Part shown: piece by piece, positions 3,458 to 20,986 of the stretch | How positions within the stretch are numbered: the stretch's first letter is position 1 | Layout: every line of letters begins with the position of its first letter | Source: a phage | Sequence record: NC_107631.1 | Strand: one strand, 5' to 3' | DNA length: 50,078 nt | Notes under the pieces: model-generated | Databases searched by the model: none | Told to the model about the DNA's origin: nothing | Seen by the model: the letters and a program-made list of their open reading frames with translations, nothing else | Made by a program: the position numbers and the translations under genes

Positions 3458-3942
3458 AATTCCTTAACGCAATACGCGTATTCTTCAGCGCGTCGGTTCT
3501 TGAGTCCTCTAGACACTTCGCGCTTTTTGGTTTTTGGGTTGTAGTAGTATACCCATCGCCATAACTGATTGCACGCTTCCTTGTGCTTACTCTGATTTAT
3601 TAGCTTAAGCATTGTAGAAGATCCGAATGCGCCAGTACCAACGTTGAAAGTAAAACTGTACAGTGACGCGCGCATCGTTACCGGAATGTCAACCTTAACC
3701 TTCTTGTCAACGTATCGCTGAGCGACGCCGATATGTTTTATCAGCAATGCATCGCATTCTCGCTTAGTGTATTTCTTACCAGGTATGACGTCAGGCCCGG
3801 TTATTCCGCTGCATACGGTAGGGACTCCGGCGATATCGTAATAAACCTCGTATTCTATACCTTCGATCCGTTCCAGTAGGGTGGGTGTCAACGTCAAAGC
3901 GGCCCCGATGGATGCGCCTATAACGTTATTTTTTAAACTCAT
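3454..3942 (-). CDS. SAR endolysin (GH24 lysozyme, P21 R21-like)
   Basis: Gly/Ala-rich N-terminal SAR segment; [14 protein letters not shown] matches the E-D-T catalytic region of P21-type lysozymes (LEG..YKDIVGVWTVC); GGGGAG RBS. Confidence 0.85.
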
Positions 3943-4157
3943 TATCTCCCCCTAATCTTAAGCGCCTTATTTAGATCGCCATCGTTTAACGCTTCCTGAA
4001 TAGCCTTACTATCGCGATACTTCCAGTACGCTCCCCATGCACCAAAAAGCAGAAAGCAAATAAATGTAGCGCCAGCAATATAAAGCTGCCCTGTCGCCGC
4101 CCCTACCAACGAAGCACCGCCCGTGCTTGACGTAGCTGCTGTTAAAAATTCTTTCAT
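3942..4157 (-). CDS. holin (small, pinholin-like)
   Basis: Start moved to Met22 (ATG) because the track start is TTG; Gly-rich transmembrane segment; stop overlaps endolysin start (TAATG). Confidence 0.6.
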
Positions 4158-4191
4158 AATCTCACCATATATTTTTTGAACAAGTGAATCG

Positions 4192-4220
4192 ATTTTAACC
4201 TTCAAATTTACTTGATACAA
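4192..4220 (-). promoter_or_regulatory. sigma70-type promoter for the lysis cassette
   Basis: On minus strand TTGTAT-N17-TAAAAT immediately upstream of the holin. Confidence 0.4.
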
Positions 4221-4275
4221 CGCAAAAAGGCCAGCATGTAAATCATGCCAGCCTGTAAGGTGATGAATGATATTG

Positions 4276-4452
4276 TTAATCTATCGCAATAAATTCCAGA
4301 TAGCTACCGTTCAGAGGCGCTTGGATTGCTGAACATCGCCCGTCGTAAATCTCAAATAATCCCCCACCGAAATCATAACCAACACTATAGATCTGATTTA
4401 CGCGGAATGGAAGTGTTTGGGAGTCATTTCGGATGCACTTAACTAGCTTCAT
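4276..4452 (-). CDS. hypothetical small protein (about 58 aa), not in ORF track
   Basis: ATG 7 nt after AGAGG; served by a dyad-motif promoter; coordinates approximate. Confidence 0.4.
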   Translation of the reverse strand: MKLVKCIRNDSQTLPFRVNQIYSVGYDFGGGLFEIYDGRCSAIQAPLNGSYLEFIAID

Positions 4453-4481
4453 GATATAGCCTCTTTGTTTTCGATGTGGTT

Positions 4482-4525
4482 ACTATGCCCGAATCCATTC
4501 GGGCGTTTTTATCAATTAGTGCGAT
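4482..4525 (-). promoter_or_regulatory. dyad-motif middle promoter (degenerate site)
   Basis: TCGCAC-TAA-TTGATAA on minus strand; CATAGT hexamer 28 nt downstream, inside inverted repeat GCCCGAATGGATTCGGGC. Confidence 0.45.
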
Positions 4526-5667
4526 CCTGTCATTTCTGGACGATAGATGAAGCGACCTATTTCCCCAAACTGCTTATCGTAAACAATTACAGCCGCCTGG
4601 CGATATGAGCGCCACCCTCCGCGCGCTGCGTATGCGTCTTTCGCGCCTAACTGACCGTGCACTTCATCAATACCTAACGAGTGTTCAGTGATTGTCTGAT
4701 GATGCCAGTGACCGCTATGAGTATACACATACTTACTCTCTCCGAAGTCTGCACGGAAGTCTGCCGCCATCGCTGCAAGTCGCGTGTCTGCCTTTTTCAT
4801 AGTGTGCCCGTGAGTGTATCCCAATAAGGTGTTTCCCCAGCGAGTCTTATGCAGAATCATAGGACTAACGTCAACGAATACTCGCGGCTCGTCTTCATAA
4901 TATGCAGACATTGCAGCTCGCAGCCAAATCATCCCAGACTGATCGTGGTTCCCTTCGATAACCTGGACCTCGACTTCTTTGTGTTTCATAAGCATTTTGT
5001 CGATGGCGCGACGCACCGAACGAATCGCTACATGCACCAATTTCGCATATCGTGAATCCTGATCTAGAACGTGACCACTTGCCGGGGTAACAGCGTCAAG
5101 GCCGTCAGAGTGAAGGAAGTCGCCGCCGATTAACAGAACAGCCTTCTCTGCGTTCGGCGCAATATCGATCGCGTAATTAAAGAAGTCGCTAAGCACTTTT
5201 TCCGCTACGTCGGTGGAATAGTTCTCACCGCATTCATGCTTATGAGCAAGCGCGCCAATATGAAGATCGAATACCGGATAGAGTGCCAGCTTACCCATCG
5301 CCGTAGTAAGCCCTTGTGAGGTTAGTAGTTCAGTTGGCTTTGCTCGAGGCAGGTCTTCACAGAATGCAATACGCGCCGCTTCCATCATTGCCGCAATCTT
5401 CTCACGGTCCTGATCGGTCTTAACCCAGCGAACTACCTCGGTCCCATCTCCGCGAATCATCGTTGATGTACCTTTTACCATGAATCCTTCCGGCACGTTT
5501 TTAGCAACATGCTCGTTACCGTGGAAGTGGCCTTCTTTTGCAAGTTTTGCGTGACGCGCCTCGACAGTGCGAATGTGCATACCGTACTTTTCCGCGATCT
5601 CGCGAAGTGTAAGTCCGTTCATGCGCTCTTCGACAAGTTGTTCGGTAGTGATTTTAGCTTGTGACAT
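4516..5667 (-). CDS. calcineurin-like metallophosphoesterase with N-terminal HTH domain
   Basis: N-terminal HTH-like segment (LTLREIAEKYGMHIRTV); phosphoesterase motifs DLH, GGDFLHSDG, GNHD, GHT. Confidence 0.7.
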   Translation of the reverse strand: MSQAKITTEQLVEERMNGLTLREIAEKYGMHIRTVEARHAKLAKEGHFHGNEHVAKNVPEGFMVKGTSTMIRGDGTEVVRWVKTDQDREKIAAMMEAARIAFCEDLPRAKPTELLTSQGLTTAMGKLALYPVFDLHIGALAHKHECGENYSTDVAEKVLSDFFNYAIDIAPNAEKAVLLIGGDFLHSDGLDAVTPASGHVLDQDSRYAKLVHVAIRSVRRAIDKMLMKHKEVEVQVIEGNHDQSGMIWLRAAMSAYYEDEPRVFVDVSPMILHKTRWGNTLLGYTHGHTMKKADTRLAAMAADFRADFGESKYVYTHSGHWHHQTITEHSLGIDEVHGQLGAKDAYAARGGWRSYRQAAVIVYDKQFGEIGRFIYRPEMTGSH

Positions 5668-13475: not shown

Positions 13476-13503
13476 CAAATCCCCGCATTGCGGGGATTTT
13501 TAT
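13476..13503. terminator. bidirectional intrinsic terminator
   Basis: AATCCCCG-cattg-CGGGGATT followed by TTTT; lies between convergent genes. Confidence 0.75.
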
Positions 13504-13919
13504 TAGAACGGAATATCGTCATCAAATGTTGACTGAGGGTTAGGTTGTGGTTGTTGTTGAGTTCGCTGTTGCTGCTGAGGTGATCTCTGTTGTTGATTGC
13601 TTTGCCCTCGTTGACTGAATACCAGCTTAGGGAAATCAGCAGCCTGCAATGAATTGTAAGTAGTTCCGTTGTGCTCACGGGATGAGATCTTCAACGTTTC
13701 GCAAGATACTGAAATTACCCGACCAACCTGAAACGCTTCACGATACCAATCAGCAAGGCCAGGCTTTCCACCATCGCTAAAAAAGAATGTGTAGTTGGTG
13801 TATTCACGATCGCCATCACGAGGCTTATAGCTTTCTGCCAGTTCGATGATATAAGTATTGCCGCCGTTACGTTCAAGAATCTTAGGTTCTTTGCGGATCT
13901 CGCCAGTTATAATATGCAT
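13503..13919 (-). CDS. ssb: single-stranded DNA-binding protein
   Basis: OB-fold-like N-terminus, Gln/Pro-rich linker, canonical acidic C-terminal tail DDDIPF. Confidence 0.85.
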   Translation of the reverse strand: MHIITGEIRKEPKILERNGGNTYIIELAESYKPRDGDREYTNYTFFFSDGGKPGLADWYREAFQVGRVISVSCETLKISSREHNGTTYNSLQAADFPKLVFSQRGQSNQQQRSPQQQQRTQQQPQPNPQSTFDDDIPF

Positions 13920-13964
13920 TATTTCTCTCCTAAAATTTATGGGCGACCGAAGCCGCCCTGATGA

Positions 13965-14612
13965 TTATTCGAAGTTGGTGATTGATTGAGATTGTACAGG
14001 CTTCGCGCTAGTTGCTTCAACCTGTTTTTTCTGTTCCGGTTGCGCCGGGCGAATACCACGAGCTTTACCGATCTCAAACTTAGCCTTAAGTGCGTTGTAG
14101 TGATCCTGAATGATTGACTTGCTTGCCGTGTCCGTCTGGCGGTAAGCGTTAGCCCATACCTCTTTCAGTGATTCGATATCTTCACACGCATCAAGTTCTT
14201 TTTTCCAGTCCTTGACAGATTTCACTGCAAGCTGAGCATCGTCATCACTCTGGCTAATCCCCAGCGCTGCGGCTAATGAGTAACGTCGAGCATACGTCAT
14301 TGCGGAACCTACGCCTTGCGGATCGCGTTTTGCAATCGGCATCATCATGAAGAATTTGGCCCACTGCCCGGATTTATGAATCAACATCGTCTCAAGATGG
14401 AAGGTCGTTTCCGTGCTTGTATCAAGCATTGATTGCAAGATCATAATATCGTTGTCGGTGAGCGCCGGGCTAACGGCTGACATCATTGCATCAAGGGTTG
14501 CGTATGAATTTTTCAGGTGGTTGTTTTTTGCGTCCTTCTTTGCTTTAGCAAATTTGTTGCGAGCATTGAACAGTGCTGGAAGGATTTCGTTCGTTTCTGG
14601 TGATAATTGCAT
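13965..14612 (-). CDS. erf: ERF-family single-strand annealing recombinase
   Basis: Similar to P22 Erf: N..K.AKAKKD..NSYATLDAMMSAVSPAL and AMTYARRYSLAAALGI; start moved to Met12 with conserved ACCAATCAGGAG RBS. Confidence 0.75.
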   Translation of the reverse strand: MQLSPETNEILPALFNARNKFAKAKKDAKNNHLKNSYATLDAMMSAVSPALTDNDIMILQSMLDTSTETTFHLETMLIHKSGQWAKFFMMMPIAKRDPQGVGSAMTYARRYSLAAALGISQSDDDAQLAVKSVKDWKKELDACEDIESLKEVWANAYRQTDTASKSIIQDHYNALKAKFEIGKARGIRPAQPEQKKQVEATSAKPVQSQSITNFE

Positions 14613-14686
14613 CTTTACTTCTCCTGATTGGTGTATGAGGTGCATTATAACACCTCATTAATTATTTGTTTAGCTATTTGTGCCGT

Positions 14687-15751
14687 TTACTTATTTTGGT
14701 AACGCACCCATGATGGCGTTTCAAGTTCGATCTCGCTTGCGTCGCCAGCGTACCCAGGCCAAACATCCATTTCAGAGCAAGCCTTGTAAGTGTGGACTAC
14801 GCTAATGTACTGGTTACGACCGATCCTGATTTGCTCCATAGTCATACGGTAAGCAAGTGCGATGTAAGGCTCTTTTTTCTCCTGCGTAAGCAATCGAACT
14901 ACGATCGGGATATCTTCCGGAAAGTTTCCTTCAAAAGCGCCAGCCTGGATTGCACGTCGTAGCAGGTCATGCTGCAAGGCCATTTTTAGATAATACCCGT
15001 GATTGTATGCCAGTCTAGGGAACTCTAACGGGTTAGCGCTCATCGTGGTTTTGAAGTCAGTGATAATTAGCGCTTCAGGGAAAATAACGTCTTCAAATAC
15101 CGGATCGCCGTTCTCATCATAACCAGTCAGCACGCGGCCTGGAACATTCTCTTTGTAGTCCAGATGGTCAAGACGAACCTTAACTTTGACGCCGGATATC
15201 TCACCGAAGATTGAGATCTCACGCTGAGCCGTCTCGCTATTGATGCACGCTTCATGATCCTGATTTTGCTCAAGGATTGCCCTCATCTTCATGCAGGCGT
15301 CGTATTTGTCAGCGTCAACCAATTTCTTTCCTTCAGCGCGCGCCTCGGCCTCAGCAATTAGTTCAATCAGATATTGGACGTTAAGGTCTTCACCACAATC
15401 AACCATCATTTTGATGAGGTCCGGGTACTGCTTACCGGATGTACCTTTCAGGCCGAATGATTTTAATTTAGATGCCAGCGCCGCCTGCGAAGTAATCAGA
15501 TCCTTAAACTCTGCCGGAGCCGGGCAACGGGCATACGATGCAGTAAACAGATCTCGGCTCTCAAAGTTGGTATGCGACTGAGTGCCGAACTCCAGCGCTT
15601 TCGTTGTCTCATTCTTCTTGAATCGCCAGTTAGCCGGGCAAGTTTGATAGATTTCTGCAAGGCTCGATCCGCTCACATACTCTGCCGCCCAACCTTCGTT
15701 GCTATGATACTCGTCATTAGAAAGCTGACTTGATGTGAATACCTGGAACAT
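14687..15751 (-). CDS. PD-(D/E)XK exonuclease (recombination partner of ERF)
   Basis: IITDFKTT motif of RecB/Cas4-type nucleases; first gene of an exo-erf-ssb operon; AGGAG RBS. Confidence 0.6.
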   Translation of the reverse strand: MFQVFTSSQLSNDEYHSNEGWAAEYVSGSSLAEIYQTCPANWRFKKNETTKALEFGTQSHTNFESRDLFTASYARCPAPAEFKDLITSQAALASKLKSFGLKGTSGKQYPDLIKMMVDCGEDLNVQYLIELIAEAEARAEGKKLVDADKYDACMKMRAILEQNQDHEACINSETAQREISIFGEISGVKVKVRLDHLDYKENVPGRVLTGYDENGDPVFEDVIFPEALIITDFKTTMSANPLEFPRLAYNHGYYLKMALQHDLLRRAIQAGAFEGNFPEDIPIVVRLLTQEKKEPYIALAYRMTMEQIRIGRNQYISVVHTYKACSEMDVWPGYAGDASEIELETPSWVRYQNK

Positions 15752-15782
15752 TGCGTTTATCTCCTTTGTTTACGATGAGTCA

Positions 15783-15810
15783 ATTATAGCCATTAACAGC
15801 GTTTAGTCAA
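15783..15810 (-). promoter_or_regulatory. strong sigma70 promoter for the recombination operon
   Basis: On minus strand TTGACT-N16-TATAAT. Confidence 0.55.
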
Positions 15811-16029
15811 TAGAATGCATGTAATTGGCGTGTAATTGCGTGTCTATATCGCTCAAGTTACAACCAGTGTCAACGCAATCAATATCTTAGCCATGTTTTT
15901 ATGTGGTGTCTATTGCGTAATACTTGTAACAGCATTTTCTTAGAAATACACGGATATCCATGAATAGAATCAATATTGATTAAATTTTGAACATATATGA
16001 TAGAAATTTGACGAATCAATAAAATCACC

Positions 16030-16200
16030 TGTTACACGATAGACAACTGTTACACAGCAATAATTATATATATAAAGCTAAAATTAAATATTATCTATCT
16101 ATATATATTATATAGAGTTTTTATCATATCCCTCTGCGGTCGGGTGGGGTGGATTTTGTAACACCCGTTCCGGTTACAAAAATAGACACCTGTTACACGA
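16030..16200. repeat. AT-rich block with (TA)n runs and repeated CTGTTACAC / GTGTTACA sites
   Basis: ATAGACA(A/C)CTGTTACAC occurs twice plus inverted TTTGTAACAC; TATATATA runs; divergent intergenic region. Confidence 0.6.
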
Positions 16201-16219
16201 AAAAATTGTAATCGCACTA

Positions 16220-16248
16220 TTGCAATAAAAGTAAATGCGACATACAAT
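16220..16248 (+). promoter_or_regulatory. sigma70 promoter for the lipoprotein gene
   Basis: TTGCAA-N17-TACAAT. Confidence 0.5.
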
Positions 16249-16277
16249 GCAATCACACTAACGACGAGGACATACAA

Positions 16278-16505
16278 ATGAAAAAGTTAATCACCATTAT
16301 CGCTGCGGCATTCATCCTGACTGGTTGCTCATCAATGCCTGAGCGAACTTGTACGGCAATTTATGAATCAGGAGGCTCAGAGTACTCGGTTTACGTTTTT
16401 GGATCTAAGATGCGAGGAGAGGAGATGCTATTGCGTGCTGGATACCCATTCTCCTTCAACTACGTATCAGAGAAAAACTTCAAGTCTCACGATTGCTCGA
16501 TATAA
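16278..16505 (+). CDS. small lipoprotein, candidate Cor/Llp-like superinfection-exclusion protein
   Basis: Signal peptide with lipobox LTGC; two further Cys; 75 aa; divergently placed beside tail-tip genes, as for T5 llp and T1/phi80 cor. Confidence 0.55.
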   Translation: MKKLITIIAAAFILTGCSSMPERTCTAIYESGGSEYSVYVFGSKMRGEEMLLRAGYPFSFNYVSEKNFKSHDCSI

Positions 16506-16530
16506 AAGAAAAGCCCCGCAAGGGGCTTAG
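16505..16530. terminator. bidirectional intrinsic terminator
   Basis: AAGCCCC-gca-AGGGGCTT with A/T runs on either side. Confidence 0.7.
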
Positions 16531-17216
16531 TCATACGCTGCTGTGTTGATTGCTGTTATGATATTTCCATTATTCGTGGTGTTCATTATCTGACCCGCAG
16601 CTGTGGTTGCTGCTGCATTTATCCTAGTTGCGCTCCCGTTGTACCTGCATGAGCTGCCTGCTGTTGAGTTTCCTATTATGGGTTGCCCAGTTGGCAACCT
16701 GCCAATAACAACTTGATAGTTGCCAAGTATAGTTGGGACAACTGCGTAGCTTCCGCTGAGTGTTGTGTCTATGTTTAATCCACCGCCAGCGTATCCAGGA
16801 GTGCCGACTGTAACCAAATCACTAAGGACTTTTGTCTCATTTGTCAGCACTAGTTTTCCTGACGAATCCCATATTGCCATACCCCAGCTCGGTAGTGGCT
16901 GCTCAAATATGGCAAATATGTAGTATGTTAGCGTGTATGATTGGTTTGCTGGATTTGTCCCCCTTATATAAACAGTTCCAACATTGGGTCCGCTTCTGAA
17001 AGTAAAGGCTGAAAGCGCGGTCCCCTGCTGCGTGTTTGTTGTTTTGCAAAAAGCTATAACCGGAACGCCTGTAGGTATCCGAACATATCTCTCCGCAACC
17101 TGTGAACCACTAACATTTACTGATTGAATTTCCCCTCTCGCATATAAGGCGAACGGCGTGGATAACGGGGTTATGAATGGGTTTCCGTTTACATCTATAA
17201 AAGCACCGTATGACAT
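16527..17216 (-). CDS. putative distal tail / receptor-recognition accessory protein
   Basis: Gly/Thr/Asn-rich beta-type composition; downstream of the tail-tip J-like gene; N-terminus paralogous to 17216..17548. Confidence 0.4.
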   Translation of the reverse strand: MSYGAFIDVNGNPFITPLSTPFALYARGEIQSVNVSGSQVAERYVRIPTGVPVIAFCKTTNTQQGTALSAFTFRSGPNVGTVYIRGTNPANQSYTLTYYIFAIFEQPLPSWGMAIWDSSGKLVLTNETKVLSDLVTVGTPGYAGGGLNIDTTLSGSYAVVPTILGNYQVVIGRLPTGQPIIGNSTAGSSCRYNGSATRINAAATTAAGQIMNTTNNGNIITAINTAAYD

Positions 17217-17548
17217 TAATCATTCTCCAGATATGCTATTAAGTAACAGTTTGATGATGGGTACACGTTTGGCCCGGGTGAGTTTGTTGGCGTTACTGTT
17301 ATCGTATTACCGCTAGCAATAATTTTCCTGCCAGGCCCACTAATGGCGCCATCGTCAAGGCTTATAACGTAGTTCACATGCATACCAGGAGGAACTTGAT
17401 AGCTGAACGATGCTGAATTCTGTCCTGCTGACAAAAAGTTCCAACCAACAACCGTAACAGGCTTAATTCCATAGTTATTATAAACGCCATTTGCGTCCCA
17501 AGTTGATATACCGTACGCCATAATAAATCCTCCAAAAGAAAAGGGCAT
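17216..17548 (-). CDS. putative tail accessory protein
   Basis: Small Gly-rich protein downstream of the J-like gene; N-terminal similarity to 16527..17216. Confidence 0.4.
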   Translation of the reverse strand: MPFSFGGFIMAYGISTWDANGVYNNYGIKPVTVVGWNFLSAGQNSASFSYQVPPGMHVNYVISLDDGAISGPGRKIIASGNTITVTPTNSPGPNVYPSSNCYLIAYLEND

Positions 17549-17566
17549 CGAGAGATGCCCTTGATA

Positions 17567-20500
17567 TTACCATGAACCAGTCAACCTGCCAATCTGAACC
17601 CTCAGACGACCACTCGCATCCCTAACAGATATTGTGGTATTAGTTTGCTTCATTGCACCCTCACCGTCACTTCCGTAGTTTTCGAATGTTCCACCCTTGT
17701 CAAGCCTCCAGCCGGACTGGTTAAAGACATAGTTATTCGACTGAATGAAGTTTCCAATCATCGCATTCGTGATGAATCCGTTCTTAATGATTGCGCTATT
17801 AAGAATCACCTGATTACCTTCAACAACGAAAGGATACTGAGTCTGACCGTTCATCCCTGTCATGATTGCAAATCGTGACGCCTCGAATAGAATTTGCGCC
17901 TTAACCGCAGCACCTGAACCAATAAGAGACATAGCCATACCAGCACTGTATTCCTGGCCGTTATACTTCAGACCCAGCTTGACGCCGTACATTGCACCAG
18001 TCGAATCCGCATTACTCCACGAATCAAGTTTTTGAGAAAGTGCCGCCTCATTATCACCAAGCCTCGCGCTTAATGACAAGTCAGCTTGCGTTCTCGCCTC
18101 AGTCTCGTTTGCTATAGCCTCTCTGATATCAGTCAAACTTGCCTGGATATCATCACCAATCTCTGCCCTGAGTTGGTCGATTTCACGCGATAGCGCTCCA
18201 GTCTCAGTTGCGATAACTTCACGCAATTCGCTGTTGCTAGCGCTAATCTGATCTCCAAAACTTGCCTTCAATTGCTCGATCGCCGTCACTCGTGCCTGAG
18301 TCTCATCAACAATAAGTTTCAGTGATTTCGTGTACTCGGCTTTTCGTTTTCCGTTCTCCCTCTTCATATAGATCGCGTCTTTGTCATTGGCGAGCGCGTT
18401 TTCTATTGCCGCCTCTGCGTTAGCTGCGTTCTGCGCAGCGTTGTCGGTTGCGTTATCAACAAGCCACTTGTAACCCGGCGAGTTTTCGATATCAACAGAA
18501 ATCTCTCCGATGATATCGTCAACGTTTGTTGATGCCATGCCCCTGACAAAATCAGTCCACTGAGAAACGTTACCGATCCTGTCAACCGTCCTTACCCGAT
18601 ACCACACAATATTCCCTCCAGGCATCGGTGAGTGATAATACTCATGCTGCGGATACGGAATCAAAGAAAGCAAACTTGCGTTATCCACTGTTCCATCCGG
18701 AGACTGTTGCAACTCCGTATAGGCCGTATCTCCAGAACCATCAGAGAACCCCCATTTTGTACGGATACCAAAAACAACATCATCTGTAGCTGTAAGGTTA
18801 ATCGGCCTCCCTGGCTCTCCTTGCTTGCCTGTCAACGTCGCTGCGACGATATTTGACCATCCGGAAGTTGTACCGGAACCAGCGACGGAGCGAACGCGAA
18901 CCTGATAGTTGCCAGCGTAAATACCCTCAACGTAAACCTCTTTGTTTGCCGTCTGAGGAACGTTTTGCCAGTTGCCATTATCCTTTCTCCACTGCACATC
19001 ATAGAAAACTGCGTACGGAACTTTATCCCAGCTAACAATCATAGTTTCTACGCTCATCCCCTGGACGATTCGTGACTCAGAGGACACTTTCACGTTTTCC
19101 GGTTTAGGAATCTGATCTGGCTCAACGATGCTCGTCGGTCGGTCGTCAATGTTTACTCCGTAATCAATCTCATCGTACTTGTTAGGATCGTACTCCACCG
19201 CAGTAATTTTGTAGGTAAATTCCTCATCATCATCACCCTTGTCGATTTTGGTCACGACGTACTGCTGCAAAGCAAGGTCGGTGCGGTCGATAGCGAATAC
19301 CGTGTTAGGCTTCACAGGAAAGCCAAAGCCGATGTTAACCTCTATAGTCTTGCCATCCGCACTAACACTTGAGATTGTGCGCTTTACGGGCTTGCCATCG
19401 GGCTTATTTACGATGATGAAGTCACCTGCGCGAGCATCGACACGGAACGGCAAGAAAATCTGACTTCCAGACACTTCGAGCAAGCGCCCTGACAGGTTCA
19501 TAGTCAAGTTACTTGACCAGAAGTTATCAGCTATAGCTACAACATCTCCAATTGTCGGAATCATACCCTCAAGCCCGGTAGCAAAGTTTACCGTAGTGCT
19601 GCGAAGGTTTGTTTTCAGAATCCATCGTCCGCGACGGTTAGCTTCACTTCGACGTGTGCACCCGATCGCTGTAATGCTCGTTACGTTATTCCCGAACCGT
19701 AGAGTTGCCTCTCTGTCGAATACTGGCTCAACGTCCTGCTGATACATGTTTTGCTCATCATCAAACATAACGTTGCACGTCGTGTACATACTTTTCTCGC
19801 TTGCGAAAGTATAGGAGAAGTCACCGTTAACAACGTTGTCGTTAGTGAAGATGTACGCAGGCTCACGCGGTCTGTCGATGATTACAGAAATGCTCTCACC
19901 ATTCCAAAAACTCATGCCACGGAAGATTGAGCAAATATCTCGAATCACTTTGTAAGCATCAGTCTGTGACTGAATTATCACGTCGCAAAGGTATCGAGGC
20001 TCCGTACCGCCTTTGCCATCAGGGACCATCTGATCGCAATATTGCGCCGCCTCATATAGCGCCCATTTATCGACAGATATTCCAAGCTCTTTCTGATCAA
20101 GCCCATAACGCTGATTAATCATCAGGTCATAAAGTACCCAGGCAGGATTATTAGTCCACGCCTTCTTAAAAGTTCCATCCCAATTTCCGTTATAAGTTCG
20201 TGATTCTGGATCATAGTTTGACGGAACGTTTACAATCTTCCAGCGCTTACGAATTGAGATCGTAGGTAACTGGTTTGGGAACATCTTCGAATCGAACTCG
20301 ACGAAAAGAAGACCAGTCAGAGGGTAACGGAATTTGGCATCAATCACCTCGGCATAGCTCTTTACCTGAATCGCGTCAACAACGTTCGAGTCGTTAGAGT
20401 CTGGAGTTTTACGAACGACTCTGAATATCACCTGATTGTTGAAGTTAGGTAGGTTTACACGTCTGCTTCGATCATAACCTGACATTGTTTTGCCTTCGAT

Positions 20501-20986
20501 TACATCGGTGAGCACCGTCTCAAACGAGCCGCCATCAACAGCTTGTTGCACCTCATACTCAACTCTTACGCCGTTTTTATCACCGTTGCTTTCAATTCGT
20601 ACGCCGCGAGGCATAAACATTTTGATACGGATTGCCGAAAGTGTTTTGTTGGTTACTGAGATCGTGTATGGGTTATCTGTAGTAACCTCACGGTTTACAG
20701 TTACCTCACTAGAGCTATCTTCCATCCCCTTGATATATTCCTGAGTCTGCGTCCCCGGCCTAAACTCTGCCTTTACTCCCTCGAAGTTAAATGAGCCATC
20801 CTCGTTTTGCACCGGGACTGAGTTAAACATCAACTGCTTTAGGCTGAATGTTTCGTCAATCTCGCCATCAGACACAGCTAACAGGATCTTGATTTTGTTG
20901 ATTGAGATTAGATTATCTTCCATCTCAACTGGCTTATGCGGCTTAGGTGAACCGCCTTTCGATCCGCTTATCACTTTTTGAATCAT
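17567..20986 (-). CDS. tail tip / central fibre protein (lambda gpJ-like)
   Basis: 1139 aa; position after gpI/K/L/M-like genes; fibronectin-like and coiled repeat segments. Confidence 0.85.
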   Translation of the reverse strand: MIQKVISGSKGGSPKPHKPVEMEDNLISINKIKILLAVSDGEIDETFSLKQLMFNSVPVQNEDGSFNFEGVKAEFRPGTQTQEYIKGMEDSSSEVTVNREVTTDNPYTISVTNKTLSAIRIKMFMPRGVRIESNGDKNGVRVEYEVQQAVDGGSFETVLTDVIEGKTMSGYDRSRRVNLPNFNNQVIFRVVRKTPDSNDSNVVDAIQVKSYAEVIDAKFRYPLTGLLFVEFDSKMFPNQLPTISIRKRWKIVNVPSNYDPESRTYNGNWDGTFKKAWTNNPAWVLYDLMINQRYGLDQKELGISVDKWALYEAAQYCDQMVPDGKGGTEPRYLCDVIIQSQTDAYKVIRDICSIFRGMSFWNGESISVIIDRPREPAYIFTNDNVVNGDFSYTFASEKSMYTTCNVMFDDEQNMYQQDVEPVFDREATLRFGNNVTSITAIGCTRRSEANRRGRWILKTNLRSTTVNFATGLEGMIPTIGDVVAIADNFWSSNLTMNLSGRLLEVSGSQIFLPFRVDARAGDFIIVNKPDGKPVKRTISSVSADGKTIEVNIGFGFPVKPNTVFAIDRTDLALQQYVVTKIDKGDDDEEFTYKITAVEYDPNKYDEIDYGVNIDDRPTSIVEPDQIPKPENVKVSSESRIVQGMSVETMIVSWDKVPYAVFYDVQWRKDNGNWQNVPQTANKEVYVEGIYAGNYQVRVRSVAGSGTTSGWSNIVAATLTGKQGEPGRPINLTATDDVVFGIRTKWGFSDGSGDTAYTELQQSPDGTVDNASLLSLIPYPQHEYYHSPMPGGNIVWYRVRTVDRIGNVSQWTDFVRGMASTNVDDIIGEISVDIENSPGYKWLVDNATDNAAQNAANAEAAIENALANDKDAIYMKRENGKRKAEYTKSLKLIVDETQARVTAIEQLKASFGDQISASNSELREVIATETGALSREIDQLRAEIGDDIQASLTDIREAIANETEARTQADLSLSARLGDNEAALSQKLDSWSNADSTGAMYGVKLGLKYNGQEYSAGMAMSLIGSGAAVKAQILFEASRFAIMTGMNGQTQYPFVVEGNQVILNSAIIKNGFITNAMIGNFIQSNNYVFNQSGWRLDKGGTFENYGSDGEGAMKQTNTTISVRDASGRLRVQIGRLTGSW

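Follow-up and report, generated by a model that had tools for sequence, protein, structure and literature searches.

In the 50,078-nt phage sequence NC_107631.1 (hereafter the window, the whole stretch of DNA that was analysed), the plus-strand gene at 16278..16505 is almost certainly cor. Its product shows every testable defining feature of the Cor family, and the gene is the ortholog of an annotated gene of T1, the type phage. As a whole, we consider the observations best explained, with good confidence, by a virulent T1-like phage whose cor gene would encode a FhuA-directed, Llp-like exclusion lipoprotein. The gene is already known: the annotations of T1 and of dozens of relatives include it, and published work covers its family, its context and a likely Llp-like mechanism.

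The window belongs to a virulent, T1-like member of the genus Tunavirus (Drexlerviridae). Over the first 25 kb, DNA identity was 92-93% across 92% of the length to Eco_BIFF, IME167, phi2013, LeonhardEuler and JMPW1, and the 901 bp around cor were 92% identical to T1 DNA. At the protein level, 72 of the 75 residues (96%) were identical to T1 Cor (ST30; YP_003915.1 / AAP49969.1), which the T1 records label 'Cor superinfection exclusion protein' or 'lysogenic conversion protein, similar to N15 Cor'. The protein scored 56.1 bits against the NCBIfam equivalog NF047972 (lamb_exclu_cor, 'phage exclusion lipoprotein Cor'; cut-off 31), with residues 1-73 aligned on profile positions 1-76 of 78, and it matched PHROG 1119 over residues 1-74 (E 7.1e-30). 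Identity to N15, ES18, phi80 and mEp phages was 33-36% by tblastn, and identity to phi80 Cor was 37% by BLASTP (E 6e-19). When the protein was aligned with T1, N15, phi80 and ES18 Cor, residues G16, C17, C25, C73 and R53-A54-G55-Y56-P57-F58 were invariant, and the protein carries the signature of the mature Cor domain, namely two further Cys near both termini plus RAGYPF. The Pfam models gave a match above the cut-off only for the generic lipobox model; the score for PF24052 ('Phage lipoprotein family') was 17.4 bits with a cut-off of 27, and T5 Llp and phi80 Cor were likewise without a Pfam family. An earlier note on this DNA had likened the gene, by position and size, to the T5 llp and T1/phi80 cor class. 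The identities to T1 and phi80 Cor and the NF047972 match bear out the cor reading, and the Cor class is recognisable from raw sequence alone.

The features of the gene and its product are as follows.
16278..16505, plus strand: cor coding sequence, Cor superinfection-exclusion lipoprotein precursor (ORF, identity to T1 Cor, NF047972, PHROG 1119)
16278..16328, plus strand: signal peptide (aa 1-16) and lipobox L-T-G-C, with the Cys17 codon at 16326-16328 (sequence, LPAM_1)
16350..16352, plus strand: Cys25 codon, with the Cys73 codon at 16494-16496 (both invariant in T1, N15, phi80 and ES18 Cor)
16266..16270, plus strand: Shine-Dalgarno sequence GAGGA (sequence, T1 RBS annotation)

The frame runs from ATG to TAA and encodes 75 aa plus the stop; its product is MKKLITIIAAAFILTGCSSMPERTCTAIYESGGSEYSVYVFGSKMRGEEMLLRAGYPFSFNYVSEKNFKSHDCSI. 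At the N-terminus, the lipobox L14-T15-G16-C17 comes after an n-region with KK and a hydrophobic core. The match to the Pfam model LPAM_1 was at the threshold (20.1 bits, cut-off 20). The lipoprotein signal reads MKKLITIIAAAFILTG directly before C17, and G16 and C17 are both invariant in the Cor alignment. Beyond C17 the protein has exactly two Cys, C25 and C73. The ORF, the LPAM_1 match and this Cys pair thus agree with the earlier description of a 75-aa lipoprotein with an LTGC lipobox and two more Cys. The GAGGA sequence lies 7 nt from the ATG of cor, and the equivalent site is likewise annotated as an RBS in the T1 record AY216660.

The protein was compared with T5 Llp in fold and in sequence. 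An AlphaFold2 model built on 21 homologues had a pLDDT of 86-93 in the mature domain and folded as a five-stranded small beta-barrel. The predicted model has the Llp fold, a small barrel whose termini are tied by a disulphide, which is presumed for Cor. FhuA-bound Llp was the best PDB structural match of the model; in a Foldseek search of the PDB, Llp was at rank 36 with an E-value of 0.4, which is not significant. T5 Llp itself matches PHROG 1119 over its full length (E 1e-19, compared with 7e-30 for Cor). Its disulphide joins Cys11 and Cys58 in mature numbering (PMC9586334), and C25 and C73 of the protein correspond to these in position. A 2026 preprint also assigns Cor to the same structural family as Llp (10.64898/2026.03.26.714494).

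Pairwise sequence comparison detected no such relation. BLASTP of Cor against Llp gave no alignment, and phmmer of the PDB sequences with the protein gave nothing meaningful and did not retrieve 8a60_B or 7qjf_A. A Cor profile aligned to full-length Llp by hhalign at 94% probability, but we rejected this value because the aligned part was mostly signal peptide; when only the mature domains were compared, the probability fell to 1.7% (E 0.03), which is not significant. In the comparison with Cor and Llp sequences that had been proposed earlier, Cor sequences matched; for Llp, BLASTP and the mature-domain profiles gave nothing significant, but both proteins match PHROG 1119 over their full length. 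Since pairwise sequence homology is undetectable, the product should not be named Llp.

The residue after the lipobox Cys governs Lol sorting of E. coli lipoproteins (the +2 rule). Cor has Ser at +2, so sorting to the outer membrane is expected. In the mechanism that we propose, cor would be transcribed by host RNA polymerase early post infection, starting at a promoter of its own within the 526 bp that separate it from recE. The precursor would be exported by Sec, receive its lipid at Cys17 and be processed by signal peptidase II, and the mature protein of 59 residues would form a small beta-barrel clamped by the C25-C73 disulphide, presumed to be intramolecular. Mature Cor would then bind the periplasmic face (the plug) of the TonB-dependent transporter FhuA. 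FhuA would thereby be locked in a state in which its extracellular loops refuse the tail tip that binds the receptor, in the way that was solved for T5 Llp. As an outcome, the infected cell would exclude further T1, phi80, T5 and other FhuA-dependent phages, progeny would not be lost to receptors on cell debris, and the transport functions of FhuA would be lost. The predicted exclusion of other FhuA-dependent phages by infected cells is relevant to combining phages in cocktails.

Several published results bear on this mechanism. In the solved FhuA-Llp complex, the periplasmic lipoprotein binds a non-native conformation of the plug, and the RBP site is blocked by loops EL7 and EL8, which are folded inward (PMC9586334). 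For KanT1, which is a T1-like Tunavirus, an AlphaFold3 model docked Cor to FhuA from the periplasmic side (ipTM 0.84; PMC13164509). Passages of the 2026 preprint (10.64898/2026.03.26.714494) state that Cor of E. coli prophages blocks superinfection by FhuA-dependent phages, citing Hernandez-Sanchez 2008, and that it functionally inactivates FhuA, citing Uc-Mass 2004. Our literature search found no direct experiment on T1 Cor; the functional data concern Cor proteins with 33-37% identity. The Cor of this phage is very likely a FhuA-directed exclusion factor. The AlphaFold2 barrel, the common PHROG 1119, the Cys positions and the solved FhuA-Llp mechanism point to an Llp-like mode of action, and by this analogy we regard it as fairly probable that the molecular mechanism is that of Llp.

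Cor might instead exclude phages through other outer-membrane proteins, or with a need for them, or it might act after adsorption, for example on DNA entry, and not by Llp-like jamming of the plug. The title of a paper by Arguijo-Hernandez et al. was counted in favour of such a route, and the 2026 preprint describes the Cor mechanism as not elucidated (10.64898/2026.03.26.714494). The lack of significant similarity between the mature domains of Cor and Llp, and RAGYPF, which is invariant in Cor and has no counterpart in Llp, would also fit it. A non-Llp route is nonetheless improbable, given that the top PDB structural match is Llp in its FhuA-bound form, that the disulphide position and PHROG 1119 are common to both proteins, and that KanT1 Cor was docked to the FhuA face where Llp-like plug jamming would take place. 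We keep the Llp-like mode of action as the preferred reading.

The neighbours of cor also relate it to FhuA. The gene is alone on the plus strand, with minus-strand blocks on both flanks. To its left are a recE-like exonuclease gene (14687-15751, minus strand), erf and ssb, and to its right are three minus-strand genes and the hairpin between them and cor.
16511..16528, no strand assigned: GC-rich hairpin AAGCCCC-GCAA-GGGGCTT between the convergent cor and tail-tip genes (folding, T1 annotation)
16527..17216, minus strand: homologue of T1 ST31 / N15 gp23, 229 aa (PHROG 425, E 1.9e-68)
17216..17548, minus strand: homologue of T1 ST32 / N15 gp22 (PHROG 557, E 1.5e-31)
17567..20986, minus strand: J-like central tail fibre / tail tip protein, 1139 aa (ORF, T1 annotation as tail fibre or J homologue)

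The first of these proteins was 97% identical to T1 ST31, 53% to N15 gp23 and 52% to phi80 gp23, and the second was 99% identical to T1 ST32 and 58% to N15 gp22. Over both proteins, identities to the N15 and phi80 counterparts spanned 52-58%, and T1 itself is a FhuA-dependent phage. The mechanical ORF of the ST32 homologue has 110 aa while T1 annotates 101 aa; as the PHROG 557 match also begins at aa 10, its start is probably Met10, with the ATG at 17521. The gene had been described as divergently encoded beside the tail-tip genes. The adjacency and the opposite strand hold, but cor and the tail-tip genes are convergent, with their 3′ ends facing each other and 21 nt between them. It is from the recE-erf-ssb block that cor diverges, across the AT-rich spacer of 526 bp.

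Through the PHROG 557 and PHROG 425 neighbours, cor is linked to a cassette of J, gp22-like and gp23-like genes. The block J - gp22-like - gp23-like - cor was also found in Hanrivervirus (aaroes), Sertoctavirus (SRT8, IME-JL8), Dhillonvirus (SSL-2009a), ES18, N15 and phi80. The orientation of cor varies among these phages: it is co-directional with J-gp22-gp23 in N15 and phi80, and inverted (convergent) in T1-like phages, Hanrivervirus, Sertoctavirus, Dhillonvirus and ES18. The cassette next to J follows the use of FhuA as the terminal receptor (PMC13164509; PMC8594841). From the T1-like and N15/phi80-like neighbours and this published link, we infer that FhuA is the terminal receptor of the phage. 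A Cor-type lipoprotein beside ST31/ST32-type genes may serve as a predictor of this receptor.

The same linkage could be read differently, with the protein not as an exclusion factor but as a tail-tip accessory that might, for instance, help the ST31/ST32 proteins to assemble or mature. Such a role would explain why cor always travels with gp22-/gp23-like genes, a linkage that is strict across unrelated phages. It would also suit N15 and phi80, where cor is on the strand of the tail genes directly after gp23, and the authors of the KanT1 study speculate on a functional relation of the three genes (PMC13164509). Against this reading, T1-like phages, Dhillonvirus and ES18 carry cor on the strand opposite the late tail operon, where it has an RBS and promoter-like sites to itself, and the Sec/Lsp signal peptide directs the protein to the envelope while tail assembly is cytoplasmic. 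Moreover, prophage Cor proteins, according to the passages cited above (10.64898/2026.03.26.714494), exclude FhuA-dependent phages and inactivate FhuA. We therefore consider a tail-accessory role very improbable and retain the exclusion factor.

The gene is conserved as a coding sequence. A tblastn search found the protein in 194 phage records, with a lowest identity of 29%. Against T1 cor, pN was 0.011 and pS was 0.139 (pN/pS ~0.08), indicating purifying selection. This conservation and the low pN argue that cor is not a chance ORF; although it is short (75 aa, and ORFs of similar length arise often by chance in the window) and the promoter matches before it are no commoner than chance, a chance or degenerate frame without a product has next to no probability in view of its retention in these records, the pN well under pS, the curated family HMMs passed (NF047972, PHROG 1119), the intact lipobox, the good Shine-Dalgarno sequence and the confident AlphaFold2 model of the mature domain. 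Two other ORFs at the locus were dismissed as chance frames, and neither is annotated in any relative: 16095-16277 on the minus strand (60 aa, TTG start) and 16363-16530 on the plus strand (55 aa), which overlaps cor.

As the lone plus-strand gene, cor needs its own promoter. Two candidates were found in the spacer upstream.
16220..16248, plus strand: candidate sigma70 promoter TTGCAA-17-TACAAT, 9/12, 29 nt 5′ of the ATG (consensus scan)
16183..16212, plus strand: alternative candidate promoter TAGACA-18-TGTAAT (homologous site annotated as a promoter in vB_EcoS_SA32RD)

Both hexamers of the first candidate were invariant in the alignment with T1 and Shfl1. Promoter-like matches in the recE-cor spacer were no commoner than chance, with 8 observed and 4.1 +/- 2.3 in shuffled sequences. 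An attempt to identify a single cor promoter by aligning the upstream regions of Tunavirus, Hanrivervirus, Sertoctavirus and Dhillonvirus was rejected: a -10-like T-A-x-x-x-T aligned but the spacing of the -35 was inconsistent. The best promoter match of the region was a near-consensus sigma70 sequence on the minus strand, TTGACT-16-TATAAT (15783-15810, 11/12), which faces recE-erf-ssb and has annotated equivalents in T1 and SA32RD.

The hairpin at 16511-16528 has a 7-bp stem, a GCAA loop and a folding energy of about -14 kcal/mol. A T-run follows it only on the minus strand, TTCTTTTATA; the plus-strand side reads AGTCATACGC. Because of this, it is only towards the tail operon that the hairpin has the canonical form of an intrinsic terminator; in both T1 records its homologue bears a minus-strand terminator annotation. 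For cor, it would be at best a hairpin without a U-tract. The sigma70-like promoter and the terminator that the earlier note had attributed to cor thus stand in part. The hexamers and the hairpin are present, but the promoter matches are not in excess over the shuffled sequences, and the U-tract serves only the tail operon.

The spacer contains other elements. The 17-mer ATAGACACCTGTTACAC occurs in three direct plus-strand copies, at 16021-16037, 16039-16055 and 16182-16198, where 0.07 would be expected by chance; it has a partial inverted copy at 15905-15914 and no further copy in the 50-kb window. Every copy includes the -35-like TAGACA. The third overlaps the site homologous to the promoter annotated in SA32RD, so that the -35 hexamer of the 16183..16212 candidate lies within it. 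The 17-mers may be regulator-binding sites or reiterated promoter (-35) elements that time the expression of cor. At 16132-16149 on the plus strand, upstream of the cor promoter candidates, a further hairpin resembles a terminator and has a T-run, CTCTGCGGTCGGGTGGGG TGGATTTTGT; weak promoter-like sites are found on the same strand at 15941-16067. A short non-coding transcript from the spacer is conceivable from these signals. Rfam matched no RNA family over 15700-16600, and a tRNA scan of the window found none. The spacer also has a 49-aa minus-strand ORF (15879-16028) at the position of CPTT1_049, a small hypothetical CDS that is present in the updated T1 record AY216660 and absent from the RefSeq annotation.

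When the window was compared with Shfl1 by blastn, the similarity was interrupted within cor. Identity was 92.7% for 13477-16328 and 92.0% from 17733 on, and 16329-17732 was unmatched.
16329..17732, no strand assigned: exchangeable cassette with mature Cor, the ST31 and ST32 homologues and the last ~55 J codons (blastn against Shfl1)

Among the matches listed, about 30 Tunavirus records had 91-96% identity through the cor promoter region and the signal peptide and then diverged into another lipoprotein and RBP allele. The match in these listed records ended at query positions 522-535, mostly 527-529, that is, at 16321-16334 of the window and mostly at 16326-16328, the Cys17 codon. The records with this swap include Shfl1, Sfin-1/2/4/5/6, pSf-2, SH6, ISF001/002 and DELF2. 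In Shfl1 the common promoter region and signal peptide are followed by a different lipoprotein of 76 aa (PHROG 4281) and, on the same strand, a 318-aa protein (PHROG 1265); these lie in the counterpart of 16329-17732, at 3530-4890 in the coordinates of the compared Shfl1 sequence. Alignments of Cor with the Shfl1 lipoprotein part immediately past Cys17 in both DNA and protein, and similarity returns at 17733, ~55 codons short of the J stop. Cor matched PHROG 4281 only at aa 1-46 (E 0.0013), the N-terminal region with the common signal peptide, and mature Cor does not belong to that family.

The constant upstream part, the diverged block and the return of similarity in J suggest that a 1.4-kb cassette, which includes the C-terminal adaptor of J, has been exchanged behind a fixed promoter and signal peptide. 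This agrees with the allelic RBP/SIE loci already described in the BASEL collection (PMC8594841). We propose tentatively, as a reading that is itself doubtful, that the cor promoter region and signal-peptide sequence form a fixed 'socket' for matched lipoprotein/RBP sets, with the 17-mers perhaps timing cor. If this is true, only the exact junction at the acylated Cys and the dedicated control element would be new; we found no description of a junction at the lipobox Cys in the literature.

Among known systems, T5 Llp (PDB 8A60 chain B, 7QJF) has PHROG 1119, the fold and the positions of the Cys pair in common with Cor. It is unlike Cor in showing no pairwise similarity by BLASTP, with 22% identity in a structural alignment, and in having no RAGYPF motif; pb5, the RBP that it partners, bears no relation to the ST31/ST32 proteins. 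The lipoproteins of the Rtp45 and Shfl1p52 types in other Drexlerviridae occupy a genomic slot equal to that of cor. Rtp45 is a periplasmic lipoprotein that alters receptor loops, on LptD (PMC12685063). Shfl1-type Tunavirus have the promoter region and signal peptide in common with cor up to the lipobox Cys, but Shfl1p52 has an unrelated mature domain (PHROG 4281) with its Cys elsewhere and a different partner RBP, which would imply a different receptor.

The Cor proteins of the temperate phages phi80, N15, mEp167 and HK022 are closer. They belong to the same curated-HMM family with 35-40% identity (37% for phi80 by BLASTP), and they have the invariant lipobox Cys, the second and third Cys, RAGYPF and the linkage to J-gp22-gp23. 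They differ in a 3-residue insertion ahead of the second Cys, which is absent here. The cor genes of phi80 and N15 come after gp23 and share its strand; the present phage is virulent and has cor inverted. Cor of temperate phages would act from the prophage, going by the T1 record label 'lysogenic conversion protein'. The closest system is T1 Cor itself, from which the protein differs by three conservative substitutions relative to T1 (S34A, E48K and L51V) in a locus whose DNA is ~8% divergent. The length of 75 aa, the slot and orientation between recE and ST31/ST32/J, the RBS and the downstream hairpin are all as in T1.
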